The position numbers and the translations under genes are program-made. A DNA stretch of 48,012 nucleotides from Eubacteriales bacterium. GTDB lineage: Bacteria; Bacillota; Clostridia; Oscillospirales; QAKW01. The notes below the pieces were generated by a model. The model had not been told where the DNA came from, ran no database searches, and saw nothing but the letters and a program-made list of their open reading frames with translations. The DNA lies in the NCBI GenBank assembly GCA_045546815.1, contig JAZQDN010000133.1, positions 1 through 48,012 on the forward strand, in the 5' to 3' direction. This document shows, piece by piece, positions 41,556-48,011 of the stretch (positions are counted from its first letter, which is position 1; each line of letters begins with the position of its first letter).

Positions 41556-41999
41556 ATGAAGATAATTGTTGATGCCGACGCGTGCCCTGTAACACGTCTT
41601 GCGAATAATATAGCAAAACAATATTCACTTGAGTGTATTGTCGTATGTGACACCTCGCACGTGATAAATATCGATTATGCCACTGTTATCACCGTTTCGC
41701 AGGGTGCTGACAGTGCCGACTACAAAATCGTAAATATGGTAGAGAATGGCGACATTGTTGTAACGCAGGACTACGGTCTTGCGGCACTGTGCCTGTCGCG
41801 CGGAGCATATGCTGTCAACCAGAGCGGTATGGTATATAACGAAGCAAATATGGACAGCCTTCTGTTTTTTCGTGCAGCCTCCGCAAAAGCGCGCAGGGCA
41901 GGTATTCGTACCAAGGGCTTTAAAAAGCGAAGCAGCAGTCAGGATGATGACTTTAACACCGCTCTTTGTAAGCTAATCGAGAGCAATCGTGTCAATTAA
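41556..41999 (+). CDS. YaiI/YqxD (DUF188) family protein
   Basis: VDADACPV, DSAD, VTQDYGLA. Confidence 0.93.
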   Translation: MKIIVDADACPVTRLANNIAKQYSLECIVVCDTSHVINIDYATVITVSQGADSADYKIVNMVENGDIVVTQDYGLAALCLSRGAYAVNQSGMVYNEANMDSLLFFRAASAKARRAGIRTKGFKKRSSSQDDDFNTALCKLIESNRVN

Positions 42000-42770
42000 C
42001 TCATAGCTTTCGTTGTACACATCGCACACAACTCCGTCACCCATGACCCGTATGTTTGCGCCGAACTCGCCTTCATTTAGTGTTGGCTCTGCGGGCGCGT
42101 GGATCTTTCCGTTGTTGTCAATGCTGTATATAAAGCTTTCGTAAAAAATAAACTCGCTTGTATCGGTTAAAACCGTCTTTGCAACCGCACCATCGTAGCT
42201 GAGCGTTTTAAGACAACTGTCTGCGCTGTCTAAAAAATACACACCGTCCTTGTAGGCGGACAGACTTTTCGGACGTGCCGCCGATATTTTGAATCGGACG
42301 AGCCCGTCAAAATCGGCACAGTAAATACCGTCGATCCCGCCGTAACCGATGCCGTTATGCTCGGTAACCGTTTCAAAATCAAAATCAATAATCTGTGAAC
42401 AATCGACCTGATTTATGAGTATCTCGTCTGCACCGACTGCACTGTAATATTCCTTTAAAAGCGATCTTGCACCCTCGTTTGTGCTGTCAACGTTTTGCAG
42501 AATGTGCAGTAAAATTCCCGCACCCTCGGGCGCGCTGATGTCAACATACTGCTGTGCGATATCGAGTAAAATATCGGTGTCGTCATTTGCATATTTTATA
42601 ACTCGGACAACACTTGCCTTGTTGTTTATATCCATCTTTTTAATCGCCCGCGATAAACGCACGCTTTTAAAGAGCAATGCCGACACGACAGCGACAGCCG
42701 TAACCGCGATAACTATTATAATTATCAACAAAGCCTTTGATTTTGTTTTTGTTTTTTGCATTATATCCAT
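41973..42770 (-). CDS. Hypothetical membrane-anchored protein (helical region plus short beta-repeat region)
   Basis: Basic N-terminus, single TM, GIYCADFDG/TLSYDG repeats; AAGGA RBS. Confidence 0.6.
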   Translation of the reverse strand: MDIMQKTKTKSKALLIIIIVIAVTAVAVVSALLFKSVRLSRAIKKMDINNKASVVRVIKYANDDTDILLDIAQQYVDISAPEGAGILLHILQNVDSTNEGARSLLKEYYSAVGADEILINQVDCSQIIDFDFETVTEHNGIGYGGIDGIYCADFDGLVRFKISAARPKSLSAYKDGVYFLDSADSCLKTLSYDGAVAKTVLTDTSEFIFYESFIYSIDNNGKIHAPAEPTLNEGEFGANIRVMGDGVVCDVYNESYELIDTIALD

Positions 42771-42796: not shown

Positions 42797-42822
42797 AAAA
42801 AAGACCTTTAAAGGTCTTTTTT
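42797..42822 (-). terminator. Terminator after the P-type ATPase
   Basis: Palindrome AAAAAAGACCTTT/AAAGGTCTTTTTT. Confidence 0.75.
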
Positions 42823-44717
42823 TATTTTTTGGCTAGGCGTGAGCTGTTTATAAGTACAACAAACGCACCGAAGTTGTGAAGTATACTGCCCGCAAGCGCA
42901 CTTATTACGCCAAACGCCGACAGCGTTATCATCGCAAGGCTTATAAGAATAGAAAGCGCAAGGTTCTGATAAATAATGCTTCTTGTCTTGCGTGCAAGCT
43001 CAATAGCGTAGGGAATGTTTAATAGGTTGTTGTTCATCAGCGCAATGTCTGCCGACTGTATTGCAAGATCAGATCCCATAGCGCCCATCGCGATACCTAC
43101 GTGCGCTTCTTTTAACGCGAGTGCGTCGTTTATGCCGTCGCCGACAGCCAACACATAATAATCCTCTTTGAGCCTTATAAGCGAATTAAGCTTATCCTGC
43201 GGTAAAAGCTGTGCCTCAAACTCCGAAATACCGATTATGTCGCAAATGTTCTGCGCGGCTTCCTTTCTGTCACCGGTAAGCATAACGGTTTTTTCAATGC
43301 CGCACTTTTCAAGCATTTCAACGCCTTGCTTTGCTTCCTCGCGTACTGTATCGCAAAAGCAAAGTGCACCTAAAAGTACTCCGTTTTTGGCAACAAAGCT
43401 GACCGAGCCTAAAAACGCCTCGTCAAAACCGTCTTCGATCTGTACACCGCATCCGGTGATCCAGCTTTTGTTACCAAACAAAACGGTGGTGCCGTCCTTT
43501 TGACCTTCTATACCCTTACCCGAGATTTCTTTTATGGAAAAATCTTTACAGTAATCGATGTTACCTGCCGCGGCGATAACCGCACGTGAAACGGGGTGAT
43601 TTGAGGCAAAGGCAACAGATGCGGCAAGCGACAACAGCTCATCCTGCTCCACACCATCACATACCTTTGCACCTGTGAGTGACAGCTCACCCTTTGTAAC
43701 AGTACCCGTTTTATCAAAAACGACCGCATTGATTTCTGTCAGCTCTTCAATGAATTTCGAGTTTTTGATAAGTATACCGCGTTTTGTTGCGGCAGACAGC
43801 GCGGCAATCATCGGTGCCGAGCTTACAAGCATCTGTCCGCAAGGGCAGGAAACAACAAGAATCGCGATAGCTTTGTTAATATCCATTGTGACAAGTGCAA
43901 TTGCCGCAGAAATAACAAGTATCAGCGGAATGTAATATTTCATAAACTTGTCGATAAGACGTGTTTCGGGGATTGAAATATTTTCTGATTCCTCAAGTAA
44001 TTTTAAAATGTTTGAAAAAGAACTGTCAACGTATTCCTTTTCAACCTCAACCACGATTTTACCGTCAAGGTTAACAGTACCCGCATACACCTTGTCGCCG
44101 ACACCGACCTGTGCAGGCTGCGGTTCGCCCGTGAGCGATTTCTGGTCAATTGCCGTCTCACCCGAAATAACCTTACCGTCAATCGGTATTCCCGTGCCGG
44201 GCTTGATTAATATTTTCTGTCCGATCTTAAGCGTTTTTGCATCAACCTCGCGCTCACTGTCACCATCAAGCAAAATTGCGGTGTTTTGCTGCATCTTTTT
44301 AAGACCGTCAATTACCTCACGGCCGCCCATAATACTGCGCTCTTCAAGAAAATGCGCAATGTTGAGTATAAACGGAATGAGCACCGACAGTACAAGCTGT
44401 CCCGTGAAGTAGCAGGCGATTATCGCGATCGCCACCAACATTTCCATTGCGTTTGAAAGCTCTTTTGAAAAAATACCCTTTACCGCCGCAATGAAAACAG
44501 GGATGCCCTCTACCAAAAATGCGATTGTATAAAAGAGCGCGGGAACAATCTCTTTTTGAGGAAACAGCAGTGTGTAAATAAATCCGACTGCAAGGCAGGA
44601 AAGCGCCACCGCTCCGCTTAAAATCTCGCGGCGCAGCTTGCTTTTTTCTTTGTCAGACATACTTTCGTTTGACAGCGCCTTAAGGCTGTTTTTTCCGATA
44701 TGGTCTATATTCTCCAT
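42822..44717 (-). CDS. P1B-type (heavy-metal) P-type ATPase without N-terminal metal-binding domain
   Basis: LTGE, SCPC, DKTGT, SNHP, TGD, GDGINDA, HN in the last TM. Confidence 0.93.
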   Translation of the reverse strand: MENIDHIGKNSLKALSNESMSDKEKSKLRREILSGAVALSCLAVGFIYTLLFPQKEIVPALFYTIAFLVEGIPVFIAAVKGIFSKELSNAMEMLVAIAIIACYFTGQLVLSVLIPFILNIAHFLEERSIMGGREVIDGLKKMQQNTAILLDGDSEREVDAKTLKIGQKILIKPGTGIPIDGKVISGETAIDQKSLTGEPQPAQVGVGDKVYAGTVNLDGKIVVEVEKEYVDSSFSNILKLLEESENISIPETRLIDKFMKYYIPLILVISAAIALVTMDINKAIAILVVSCPCGQMLVSSAPMIAALSAATKRGILIKNSKFIEELTEINAVVFDKTGTVTKGELSLTGAKVCDGVEQDELLSLAASVAFASNHPVSRAVIAAAGNIDYCKDFSIKEISGKGIEGQKDGTTVLFGNKSWITGCGVQIEDGFDEAFLGSVSFVAKNGVLLGALCFCDTVREEAKQGVEMLEKCGIEKTVMLTGDRKEAAQNICDIIGISEFEAQLLPQDKLNSLIRLKEDYYVLAVGDGINDALALKEAHVGIAMGAMGSDLAIQSADIALMNNNLLNIPYAIELARKTRSIIYQNLALSILISLAMITLSAFGVISALAGSILHNFGAFVVLINSSRLAKK

Positions 44718-44730
44718 TCTACAGCCTCCC

Positions 44731-45672
44731 TTAGTTAATGATAATATTGCTGTCGCCTTCGCTTACAACCTTGATAGTACCGATTTTATTAATGGCTTCT
44801 TTAACCTTCTGGTTATATATGCGTGTGCGCACAACAACAGAGCTTGTCTTGTACTCTTCAAGCACGCCCCAGAACTCTGCAAGGTCAGAGTTTGCCGCGG
44901 CAACCGCCGTCGAATACTCTGTGTTTGCGTCAGATATCGCTTTGTTTGCGTCCGCTTCAGCGGAAGGAATGGTGGTGTCGCGGTACTGCGTCGCATTTTC
45001 AAGAATAGTGTTTGCCTGAACTGTCGCAGAGTTTACCGCCTCATATGTTGCACGCACCTCGCTCGGCATACCGACGTATGTAAGCTCAATTGCACTTACC
45101 GTAATTCCGACCTGTGCCGCATCCAGCTTTTGCTGTGAGCTTTTTATTGTCTGTGATGTAAACTGCTCCTTGCCCGAAGTGAGAATGTCGTCAACGGCCA
45201 TATACGCCGATGTTTCGACCATTGCGTTGCTGACGCTGGCATTGATGATCTGTTTAATATCCTTTACCTTGAGTGCGTATGCAACGGGGTCTGTTATCGT
45301 GTATTTGAGCGATGCGGTAATAACCGCAATGTTGTGGTCGCCCGTGATAACGTACCCGTTTTTTGTGTAGTCAGAGCTCATTTCAGCGGGTGTGAAATGT
45401 GTTTCGACCTTCTGCTCAATAATATTGCCTGTCGGGACTGTTATGACCTCATCAATGATGTAGGGGAATGCAAACAGTATACCCGGTCCGTGCACCTGCT
45501 CCTCGGCGGTATTGCCGACAAGCTTTCCGAATCGCAGAATAAGTGCGACGTTACCGCTCTTTATAAAACGTACACCCGAAAAGCAAATGAACAGTGTTAT
45601 TATGATGACTGCGGCAACAAAAATCCGTGATACCGTTTTCAGTACATCTTCAAAAACTGCATTCTTTTTCAT
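44731..45672 (-). CDS. SPFH/HflK-like protein
   Basis: Single N-terminal TM, LRFGK, GPG..FAFPY.ID, ITGDHN, Ala-rich coiled coil. Confidence 0.88.
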   Translation of the reverse strand: MKKNAVFEDVLKTVSRIFVAAVIIITLFICFSGVRFIKSGNVALILRFGKLVGNTAEEQVHGPGILFAFPYIIDEVITVPTGNIIEQKVETHFTPAEMSSDYTKNGYVITGDHNIAVITASLKYTITDPVAYALKVKDIKQIINASVSNAMVETSAYMAVDDILTSGKEQFTSQTIKSSQQKLDAAQVGITVSAIELTYVGMPSEVRATYEAVNSATVQANTILENATQYRDTTIPSAEADANKAISDANTEYSTAVAAANSDLAEFWGVLEEYKTSSVVVRTRIYNQKVKEAINKIGTIKVVSEGDSNIIIN

Positions 45673-46742
45673 TATGCTACTCCTTTTTGCTCTGAAATAA
45701 GAGTGTAAAGAGAGCTTGTGAGAGCCTGCGCGTCCTCCTCGGGAAGCTGTGTCATTATATAGTTAAGGTCTTCAATAATAAGCTCGTTTGAGGTGCCGTC
45801 ACTTACCATATTACCGTAGTCAAGAAGCACGTTAAAGGGGTATGAATCAGCGGTTACAACAAGTACAGTTCCCTCGTCGACCGAGGCAACAACGGTGTCA
45901 AGTTCCTGCAAGAACTTGTACAGTTCAACGTTTGCCGCCTGCGCACTTGCATAGATCTGCGCAACCTCTGTTTCGGTCTTTGCTTTTATCTGTGCAGCTT
46001 CCGTCTTGCCGTCAGCAATTATCTGTGCCGCCTGTGCGTCGGCATCAGCCTTGATTTTGTTGGCATCTCTGTTTGCATTTGCAATTATCGTGTCTATATC
46101 CTTTTGTCTGTCGGCACTCATCTGTGCAAATACGCTTTCAAGATTGGCGTTGGGAAGCGAAATACGTAGTATGTTCACGTCAGTAATTTCAATGCCGTAG
46201 TTCTTTTCGCAGTTTGTCTTCACTTCTGCATAGATTTTATCCTGTATTTCCTCTGTCTTTATCGTTTCCTTTTCAAGTGAAACAAGGTCAGTCAGATTAT
46301 ATGCGCCCATAACGCTGTTTGTTGCACTGAATATCTGGTCTTTAATGTACGAGTCAACCGTACCCTGTGCACCGACACTGTTATAGTAAAGCAGTGGGTT
46401 TGTAACCTTCCATACAGCGTATGACTGCAAAATGATGTTACGGTTGTCCTTGGTGGTTGTCTCAAGATAGTTTGACTCAAGATACTGCAGTCTGTTTTCA
46501 AACTTCTCAACCGTTTCAAACGGCCACGGCAGTTTGAAGTAAAGTCCTGCCTCTGTGATCTCGGCGCGCGGCGCACCAAAGCGTAAAATCACAGCGCCCG
46601 TACCCTCGCGTACCTCGCACGTGAACATAAAGTATGCAAGAATTATAACAAGTACAGCCGCAAGCGTTATTTTTATCCAGCGCATAGAAAACAGCTTTTG
46701 TTCAGCGTTTTCGGACTGTGCTTTCTTTTTGAATATTTTCAT
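45672..46742 (-). CDS. SPFH/HflC-like protein with C-terminal extension
   Basis: N-terminal TM, LRFGAP, GLYFKLPWP, TKDNRN, VF.QM.ADR, AQIYA, LYKFL. Confidence 0.88.
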   Translation of the reverse strand: MKIFKKKAQSENAEQKLFSMRWIKITLAAVLVIILAYFMFTCEVREGTGAVILRFGAPRAEITEAGLYFKLPWPFETVEKFENRLQYLESNYLETTTKDNRNIILQSYAVWKVTNPLLYYNSVGAQGTVDSYIKDQIFSATNSVMGAYNLTDLVSLEKETIKTEEIQDKIYAEVKTNCEKNYGIEITDVNILRISLPNANLESVFAQMSADRQKDIDTIIANANRDANKIKADADAQAAQIIADGKTEAAQIKAKTETEVAQIYASAQAANVELYKFLQELDTVVASVDEGTVLVVTADSYPFNVLLDYGNMVSDGTSNELIIEDLNYIMTQLPEEDAQALTSSLYTLISEQKGVA

Positions 46743-46760
46743 TACCGTATCTCCTTAAAA

Positions 46761-48011
46761 TTACTGCTCGGCTTTTGGCTCGCTTGTCTGCGGTGCATTA
46801 AAATTGCCGAAGTAAATTTTTGAACTGTCAACACCGTTACCCACAATTACGAGGTTTGCGTTGCCGTAGGCGTTTTTGAGTGCCTTTAAGTACTTGTGAT
46901 ATCTGTAAGCACTCGGGTATGCATTGTATGCCTCGACACCTGCCATGAACTCGGCGATCTCGGTGCGGGCCGCCGCCACCTTTGTCGAGTGCTCGGCGTT
47001 TGCCTCGCCCACCGCGGTGTCATACTGTTGCTGTGCCTCTGCCTGTTTTGTTTCTGCGTCGCACTGCGCAGTGATCTTTATTTCCTCCGCCTGTATCTCA
47101 GCGCTGATTATCTCCTGATAAACCGATGCCACCTCGAGCGGCGGATGTATGCTTTCAAGAACAATGCTTACAACCTCAATACCGGTGTTAAATGAATCCA
47201 GCTTTTTGGTAAGTTCCTCACTGAACGTTTTTGCAAAAGCATCGCGGTCGGTAGACAAAAGCGTCGCAAGACTTGTGTTGATCGTTCTGTCTGTCACAAG
47301 CTCGTATGCCTGCGCCTGCAAAAACTGTTCGGGGGACGAGGTGCTTGTCAGATACTTTTTGAGGTCTTTAATCTTATACTCGACCCTGAGGTTTATCGAC
47401 ACAAGCTCGTCACCGCCGCCAAGCAGCAGCTTGTACTCGGTCTTGCCGTGCTCGCTTGTCCACACGTTGTCTGTGTTTTGTGTCGAGCTGTAGCCGATTG
47501 TAATTTTGTTTACGCTCTCTGTGTTGTAAATGTCTACCTTGTCGATAGGGTAGGGAAAAACAAAATGCAGACCCGGCTCAAGAATTTTTTGTTCAAGCGA
47601 GCCGAGGCGGTAAATCGCGCCCTTGCTGTGCGGGTCGATCTGGATAATGCAAGTCGACAGCCACAAAAAGAAAACTATAAAAACGACGGTTATCGGCGCA
47701 ATCTGCTTCACATAACGCATGCTCCACAGTCCGCGCATTGTAATGCCTGTGTTATTTTCTAAAAAGTCGATTACCGAAAGATTGTCGTCACTGCTCTTTA
47801 TAAACGGTATCGGTATTACCGCCTGCGGCTGTGTGTCGAGCTGCTTGCGTATGATCGTTACAACGAGCGATATCGCCATAAACACCGACATATAGTAAAA
47901 CAGTGCCGCGAGTATGTATTTTACATAAACGTCAATATCCCACAGTGCAAGCGCTTTGAGTACAGATGAAACAATACATACAAAAAGCACTGCATAAATA
48001 ATTCTCATATA
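46761..48011 (-). CDS. SPFH/HflK-like protein with extra N-terminal TM domain (probably 5'-truncated by window edge)
   Basis: At least 3 TM, then YRLG, PGLHFVFPYPID, HPP and coiled coil. The frame stays open to the window end. Confidence 0.85.
   Translation of the reverse strand, partial: YMRIIYAVLFVCIVSSVLKALALWDIDVYVKYILAALFYYMSVFMAISLVVTIIRKQLDTQPQAVIPIPFIKSSDDNLSVIDFLENNTGITMRGLWSMRYVKQIAPITVVFIVFFLWLSTCIIQIDPHSKGAIYRLGSLEQKILEPGLHFVFPYPIDKVDIYNTESVNKITIGYSSTQNTDNVWTSEHGKTEYKLLLGGGDELVSINLRVEYKIKDLKKYLTSTSSPEQFLQAQAYELVTDRTINTSLATLLSTDRDAFAKTFSEELTKKLDSFNTGIEVVSIVLESIHPPLEVASVYQEIISAEIQAEEIKITAQCDAETKQAEAQQQYDTAVGEANAEHSTKVAAARTEIAEFMAGVEAYNAYPSAYRYHKYLKALKNAYGNANLVIVGNGVDSSKIYFGNFNAPQTSEPKAEQ

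Follow-up and report, generated by a model that had tools for sequence, protein, structure and literature searches.

In Escherichia coli, HflK and HflC form a complex with FtsH that is known from several structures (PDB 7vhp, 7vhq, 7wi3, 9cz2, 9paw), and what other roles SPFH cages play in bacteria, besides the control of this protease, is a question still to be answered. We describe here a four-gene unit for which genomics gives one concrete, hard-wired client of such an assembly. It lies at the right end of contig JAZQDN010000133.1 of the Eubacteriales bacterium assembly GCA_045546815.1; the window that we analyzed is this entire contig of 48,012 bases, from a 1.9-Mb genome assembly that is 75% complete. 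The unit encodes three SPFH proteins (SPFH1, SPFH2 and SPFH3) and a P1B-type ATPase, which we refer to as the pump.

The closest known case, by published gene order, is the hmtA locus of Pseudomonas aeruginosa, PA2434-PA2439, in which PA2435 is HmtA and PA2437-2439 are PaFlo7/6/5 (PA14_33110/PA14_33080/PA14_33070 in a table in PMC9431628). In a znuA mutant, PA2434 is induced 6.5-fold, PA2435 5.6-fold, PA2437 14.4-fold, PA2438 10.6-fold and PA2439 9.0-fold (Pederick et al., PMC4542158, Table 2), and the same paper reports a weak Zur site. In a proteomics preprint, zinc depletion raises the levels of these proteins (PMC11761036). Reviews call HmtA a Zn/Cu importer and ask for this to be confirmed, and PA2437-2439 have been interpreted as FtsH modulators (PMC11761036, PMC9431628). 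A paFlo5-7 triple SPFH deletion, published in 2026, had mild phenotypes only, and that study does not mention hmtA (PMC13086221). In Mycobacterium tuberculosis, PacL and the P1B pumps CtpC, CtpG and CtpV form assemblies, termed effluxosomes, that cluster in mobile membrane domains (PMC13460109). No paper found in our literature searches ties an SPFH trio to a P1B pump; the Pseudomonas zinc papers name the genes next to one another and take the SPFH proteins to be FtsH modulators. A sequence-only reading of the window, made before this analysis, knew of no functional characterization of such an arrangement; in the papers searched, that holds for trio and pump together, but not for the P. aeruginosa gene order, which is induced by zinc starvation and for which a trio deletion is in print.

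We read the unit as a self-contained, mobile four-gene module in which an atypical P1B pump has a dedicated SPFH assembly of the HflK/HflC type as its partner in place of FtsH, and we put the probability of this reading at roughly 0.6. In other words, the unit is best read as an SPFH assembly with a dedicated transporter client. Its parts are four co-oriented minus-strand open reading frames (ORFs) in the order SPFH1-SPFH2-SPFH3-P1B ATPase, and a terminator-like element:

46761..48011, minus strand: SPFH1, 3' part, HflK-like with a polytopic N-domain; 416 codons, open at the contig end; Band_7
45672..46742, minus strand: SPFH2, HflC-like, 356 aa, one N-terminal membrane helix; Band_7 at 2.5e-25
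44731..45672, minus strand: SPFH3, second HflK-like protein, 313 aa, one N-terminal membrane helix; Band_7 at 1e-18
42822..44717, minus strand: P1B-type ATPase, 631 aa, without an N-terminal metal-binding domain; Pfam E1-E2_ATPase and Hydrolase, and NCBIfam
42797..42822, no strand assigned: palindromic hairpin with flanking A/T runs, terminator-like, directly after the pump stop codon

The intergenic gaps along the unit, taken from the coordinates, are 18, -1 and 13 nt. Reading of the sequence places the SPFH3 start over the SPFH2 stop as TAATG and a strong ribosome-binding site, AAGGGAGG, ahead of the pump gene. The terminator hairpin, AAAAAGACC-TTTA-AGGTCTTTTT with a T-run, was found right after the pump stop by a scan and by sequence reading; the call is a consensus match only, with 11 pairs, 3 of them G-C. 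The packing, the overlap and the single terminator had all been described in the sequence-only reading and are confirmed from the ORFs and the sequence. That reading also took the first gene to be HflK-like with many transmembrane segments. The polytopic N-terminus is borne out, but the gene is not whole in the window, as the contig end cuts SPFH1. The window holds about residues 177-591 of SPFH1 (the last ~415 residues), with the final three membrane helices, the SPFH domain and a long helix at the C-terminus. The first 182 codons are found at the end of contig C91 (7934-8479, locus L161). The final 21 nt of C91, when reverse-complemented, match the window end exactly, and the SPFH1 frame continues across the join.

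All three SPFH proteins carry Band_7, which Pfam places at residues 124-327 of the window part of SPFH1. The best NCBIfam models are hflK for SPFH1, hflC for SPFH2 and hflK for SPFH3, and a phmmer search against solved chains agrees, with E. coli HflK matching SPFH1 at 2.6e-17, HflC matching SPFH2 at 1.9e-23 and HflK matching SPFH3 at 1e-15. The HflK-like, HflC-like and HflK-like identities given earlier to the three genes therefore stand. All three proteins miss the equivalog cut-offs, with scores of 115.2/159.4 bits for SPFH1, 132.1/134.4 bits for SPFH2 (TIGR01932) and 130.5/159.4 bits for SPFH3 (TIGR01933). They have the HflK/HflC architecture of a membrane helix followed by an SPFH/Band_7 domain and a long helix, and K-type and C-type proteins are encoded side by side. 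Relatives of SPFH1 are 581-659 aa long, and the model of a full-length relative has seven membrane helices ahead of an SPFH domain like that of HflK, with a long helix after it. When the whole SPFH1 model was searched with Foldseek, only SPFH proteins were returned (HflK, HflC, and stomatin, prohibitin and erlin cages), with 7vhq_E at the top.

The gene order is conserved well beyond this genome. A survey with patterns from SPFH1 alone, taking one genome per species, gave 56 loci, 49 from Bacillota and 7 from the Planctomycetota/Verrucomicrobiota (PVC) group and Sumerlaeota. The order SPFH1-SPFH2-SPFH3-ATPase was found in 45/49 of the Bacillota loci, the other four being cut by a contig end before the position of the pump, and tight gene packing was seen in 42/42 loci with a full-length pump ORF. 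Outside the Bacillota the pump adjoins the trio in 4/7 loci, where it precedes the trio, follows it or is fused with it. Together with two proteobacterial replicons, described below, these counts uphold the conservation of the ATPase linkage. Among 12 congeneric genomes, the pump and SPFH2 were both found in the same seven and both not found in the other five (completeness 78, 86, 99, 99 and 99%), and in each of the five congeneric loci examined the unit has different neighboring genes. A close pump orthologue was present in 1/299 other sampled Clostridia genomes, and that genome carries the trio. Given this shared presence and absence and the single case among the Clostridia, we conclude that the unit is rare, accessory and inherited as a block.

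The unit does not keep company with ftsH. Using the genome's own FtsH fragment as a tblastn query, we found ftsH in 0/56 related loci and in 0/5 larger congeneric loci, that is, in none of 61. The sole Peptidase_M41 match of the genome sits on another contig, C109, in agreement with the earlier remark that no ftsH was in view. Upstream of SPFH1 on C91 lies not ftsH but an oxaloacetate decarboxylase sodium-pump operon (alpha, biotin carrier, beta), which has its own terminator hairpin. An unconserved ATPase linkage or ftsH just upstream would have refuted the sequence-only reading, and neither was observed.

The four genes also occur on mobile DNA. The best match to the pump among 4,852 plasmid records is on a conjugative MOBF plasmid of Klebsiella aerogenes, NZ_CP142847.1 (67441-73167, locus L162), where PGAP annotates HflK (568 aa), HflC, HflK and a cation-translocating P-type ATPase in overlapping genes. 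This copy adjoins a Tn3-family transposase and a recombinase, with DUF4198 and TetR genes upstream. The same four genes are present on a Rhizobium replicon, and in the tree described below the Klebsiella and Rhizobium pumps sit in the same clade as the linked pumps. The Klebsiella conjugative plasmid gives direct evidence that mobile DNA carries the unit, and we regard the module as real, conserved and mobile.

The identity of the pump as a P1B-ATPase is confirmed by its catalytic motifs (FDKTGT, SCPCG, SNHP and GDGINDA, read from the sequence) and by a score of 497 against the TIGR01525 hidden Markov model, with a cut-off of 346.25. Its membrane motifs are SCPCGQ in M4, YQN in M5 and LHNFGAF...NSSR in M6. 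In the P1B-2 exporters of Zn, Cd and Pb, such as ZntA and CadA, an Asp in M6 and a Lys in M5 bind the metal. When the pump is aligned to ZntA (4umv), the M6 segment ADTGA of ZntA faces HNFGA and its M5 segment LGLKG faces LISLA, so that the M6 Asp of ZntA is opposite an Asn that is preceded by His, and the M5 Lys is without a counterpart. Neither of the two P1B-2 residues is therefore found in the pump, which nevertheless scores above the cut-off for TIGR01512 (449 vs 313.5). The residues C-P-C, Y-x-N and H-N-x-G-A-F are invariant in 18 aligned Clostridial pumps. According to a 2026 review, H-N-x-(S/T) in M6 with CPC or SCA in M4 marks the poorly known P1B-6 pumps, and CtpC has CPC with an H-N motif in M6 (PMC13460109). 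The Clostridial pumps have H-N followed by x-G-A (18/18), the Klebsiella (HNMST) and Rhizobium (HNFST) pumps fit the P1B-6 motif exactly, and the fusion proteins described below mostly have H-Q in M6. Many of the non-Clostridial pumps, from Proteobacteria and the PVC group, carry His-rich N-termini, which would fit a divalent metal; the Clostridial pumps are without them.

Linkage to SPFH genes follows the lineage of the pump. A reciprocal metagenome scan with generic P-type motifs from the pump alignment returned 80 P1B loci, which serve as a background P1B sample because the motifs were generic. SPFH genes adjoin the pump in 7/80 of these loci, among them the loci of the five pumps with the highest similarity to the query. 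M6 contains the His in all six of the seven linked pumps whose M6 was readable. None of the metagenome pumps of the Asp type (ADVGV) is SPFH-linked. For the 73 unlinked loci, flanks of at least 3.5 kb were available on both sides in 29, on one side in 19 and on neither in 25. In a tree of 100 pumps made with FastTree, a quick method, a branch with 97% support has all 31 linked or fused pumps on the same side, and 22 of the linked pumps make up a core clade supported at 99%. Five unlinked rows share the linked side of the branch: two of the HN type, two of the TPC type, and one on a contig without flanks. In two loci a second, unlinked P1B ATPase is found a few kb from the unit (L078:18-2015 and L057:1962-3575), and both of these ATPases fall in the unlinked part of the tree. 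SPFH linkage is confined to one P1B lineage that has His in M6 where ZntA has Asp.

Natural fusions bear on physical coupling. In a Sumerlaeota locus the whole pump is encoded in one ORF of 1,038 codons together with a further membrane helix and an SPFH domain of HflK type; genes like SPFH2 and SPFH3 come next. Using the SPFH part of this fusion, P0125, as a query, we looked among the matches at proteins of 570-1,817 aa and found eight distinct pump-SPFH fusions of 984-1136 aa from different sources, each with E1-E2_ATPase, Hydrolase and Band_7, whose SPFH parts are 33-56% identical to that of P0125. In these fusions the pump stands in place of the N-domain of SPFH1. Two shorter proteins, P0130 and P0132 (724-732 aa), have an ArsP_1 "predicted permease" domain fused to the same HflK-like SPFH type, and from the domain match we count ArsP_1 as the third type of transporter module to occupy the N-terminal position of SPFH1. 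Because the C-terminus of the pump is cytoplasmic and the fusion adds one helix, the SPFH domain would be outside, as in HflK. Physical coupling of pump and SPFH1 is the best reading of the fusions, one that we hold with somewhat better than even confidence. The sequence-only reading had suggested an SPFH cage or microdomain that encloses or regulates the pump, and this is supported in part, by the conserved linkage and by the eight pump-SPFH fusions, which are a strong argument for coupling.

We propose that SPFH2 and the HflK-like SPFH1 and SPFH3 would assemble into a hetero-oligomeric ring or cage at the outer surface of the cytoplasmic membrane, by analogy with E. coli HflK/HflC. SPFH1 would be an adaptor subunit, with a six-helix membrane domain ahead of its last membrane helix, at a position that other lineages fill with the pump itself or with an ArsP-type permease. 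Since either can stand there, the pump would be held at or inside the ring, in a confined patch of membrane, and this confinement may control the stability of the pump, its activity, or the access or release of metal on the outside. We infer the ring, its orientation, the contact with the pump and the metal, the orientation coming from the positive-inside rule and the fusion architecture. The transported metal is most likely Zn2+ or a similar divalent ion. A complex prediction for the pump and the SPFH1 N-domain (residues 1-300), each given as an alignment, scored 0.01 against a mark of 0.32, was run without controls, and speaks neither for nor against binding. That the unit has been gained, lost and even fused across several phyla points to a scaffold cage whose client is a transporter and not FtsH. 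This client offers a single pump lineage, natural fusions that fix the geometry, and members in tractable hosts (the Klebsiella plasmid and, by gene order, P. aeruginosa).

Several observations weigh against this reading. The 49 Bacillota loci come mostly from related gut metagenome-assembled genomes and are not independent, and three PVC loci (L073, L074 and L079) show no pump, all of them being short on the relevant side. Pumps of the HN type that are sisters to the linked ones (L120 and L130) are without SPFH neighbors. In the Verrucomicrobiota and Phycisphaerae loci L076, L077, L079 and L074, an ABC ATPase and ABC-2 type permeases join the operon, so the scaffold may have clients besides the pump. 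In Clostridia the lack of a His-rich tail on the pumps makes the metal less certain. The orthology of P. aeruginosa HmtA is by published gene order only, not by sequence, and the triple SPFH deletion in that species was mild, though the published work reports no test under zinc limitation (PMC13086221).

The alternative that survives best, and that we still consider unlikely, is that the trio are ordinary FtsH modulators with which the pump is only co-regulated, for example since FtsH is a zinc enzyme or since the pump is among the proteins that it degrades. The best matches of the trio are E. coli HflK and HflC, SPFH2 falls only about 2 bits short of the hflC cut-off, FtsH is present in the genome, and this is how two papers have read PA2437-2439 (PMC11761036, PMC9431628). 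Against these points, all three proteins are below their equivalog cut-offs and ftsH was nearby in 0/61 loci. FtsH proteases are reported in nearly all cellular organisms, and the trio was not found in 5/12 congeners, three of them 99% complete (ftsH was not searched for in these five). Covalent fusion to a pump and linkage to one pump lineage would also be unexpected of a general protease modulator. FtsH and the pump are not exclusive as partners, as one cage could hold both.

Less probable again is that SPFH1 is itself a metal transporter, a CDF-type domain tethered to an SPFH ring, in a system of two transporters that would act in series or with one importing and one exporting. Modeled alone, the SPFH1 N-domain is a confident six-helix bundle (pLDDT 86.5, pTM 0.81). 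Its best structural matches by VIA-align are ZnT3 (Z 15.5, root mean square deviation 3.6, 189 residues aligned) and SLC30A10 (Z 14.3), followed by ferritin-type bundles at Z 10.5 and below; however, mostly helical models may reach a best Z of ~14 by common arrangement without kinship. Foldseek ranks YiiP and ZnT chains first, only at E of about 0.5-2. From these models, the likeness of the N-domain to the membrane domains of CDF zinc transporters is a lead, and transporters do stand at the same position elsewhere, namely the P1B pump and the ArsP_1 permease. Set against this, Cation_efflux (Pfam) was detected in 0/29 SPFH1 N-domains, even at E up to 10, and no other recurrent Pfam family was found among the 29. 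By inspection of the N-domain alignment, there is no conserved His/Asp pair in the would-be TM2 and TM5. The best-conserved part of the N-domain is not the bundle but the cytoplasmic segment before the last helix, and helix 4 has a well-conserved Lys at its inner end, within the stretch D-K-x-C-K-H. An atlas search with the N-domain gave a best score of 0.81, under the level for a lead.

The least probable of the three is that trio and pump are co-expressed parts of a metal-stress response that never touch, with a ring that protects or reorganizes the membrane generally, like flotillins or PspA-linked SPFH proteins; SPFH proteins are often broad scaffolds and other transporters share the operon in PVC loci, but fusions in eight proteins, strict co-presence and co-absence in the genus, and linkage to one pump lineage only all speak against it.

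A more speculative extension of the preferred reading, that of a pump with its own SPFH assembly, is that the trio would enclose a chamber on the outside of the membrane, with transporter modules built into its wall (a CDF-derived domain in Clostridia, the P1B pump in the fusion lineages, an ArsP-type permease elsewhere). The unit would then be a dedicated compartment for handling metal outside the cytoplasm, a kind of "pseudo-periplasm" for zinc acquisition or controlled metal delivery. We regard this as improbable, though less so than the rivals above. If it were true, cages of the HflK/HflC type would have arisen repeatedly to house transporters in addition to FtsH.

On C91 a promoter-like site lies ~30 nt ahead of the SPFH1 start codon, and a 12-nt palindrome, TTAATATATTAA, is found 31-46 nt ahead of SPFH1 here (L161:7888) and in two congeners. 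We considered this palindrome as the operator of a metal regulator and dropped the idea because the genome has further promoter copies that precede rpsB-tsf and ilvA-ridA (C61:10010 and C100:7623), in addition to a fourth copy; it may be a shared promoter element, and it does not mark a metal regulon. No riboswitch was found near the unit with Rfam at gathering thresholds in 10 loci (136 kb), where the only matches, elsewhere in the loci, were a T-box, a TPP element and a tRNA. Three sequencing runs contain this stretch of DNA or a part of it, and no RNA run is listed among those that do. In congener G006 a 469-aa protein is encoded directly upstream of the unit (L022:3078-4487, the same as L051), with an N-terminus of Band_7_1, a second SPFH family, and a C-terminus of DUF6273. 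Just downstream of the terminator in the window is a 265-aa ORF on the minus strand (41973-42770) with no Pfam or NCBIfam match; the nearest congener has a 264-aa ORF at the matching position, and the other congeners do not.

Compared with known systems, the trio is closest in sequence and fold to E. coli HflK/HflC, and it is alike in the pairing of K-like and C-like proteins and in the succession of membrane helix, SPFH domain and long helix. It differs in having three subunits and not two, one of which has an extra six-helix membrane domain, in falling below the equivalog cut-offs, and in lacking an ftsH, hfq or hflX context. The unit is also an accessory cassette and not a core gene pair. 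The CDF transporters (YiiP, ZnT/SLC30) gave the best structural matches to the modeled SPFH1 N-domain. In contrast to them, the N-domain has no sequence match and no conserved metal-site residues that we could see, and SPFH1 is without the cytoplasmic C-terminal CDF domain, having a seventh helix and an SPFH domain instead.

The P. aeruginosa hmtA locus is alike in that genes for an HflK-family protein, HflC and a third HflC/K-family protein stand beside an atypical P1B ATPase. It is different in that PA2436 lies between the trio and hmtA, and in that the Clostridial pump has no His-rich N-terminus. If our reading is true, the zinc-starvation genes PA2437-2439 would be recast as partners of HmtA, which could bear on how this disputed "importer" works. 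The M. tuberculosis effluxosomes are alike as P1B pumps that need co-encoded membrane scaffolds (PMC13460109), and CtpC, by its published description and not by sequence, shares CPC and the H-N of M6 with the pump described here. PacL proteins belong to DUF1490, have a single helix, are small and show no relationship to SPFH, and none is encoded in this unit, so the likeness would be a functional analogy with an unrelated scaffold. If true, the SPFH unit would be a second, unrelated example, after mycobacterial PacL, of P1B pumps that need a dedicated membrane scaffold.

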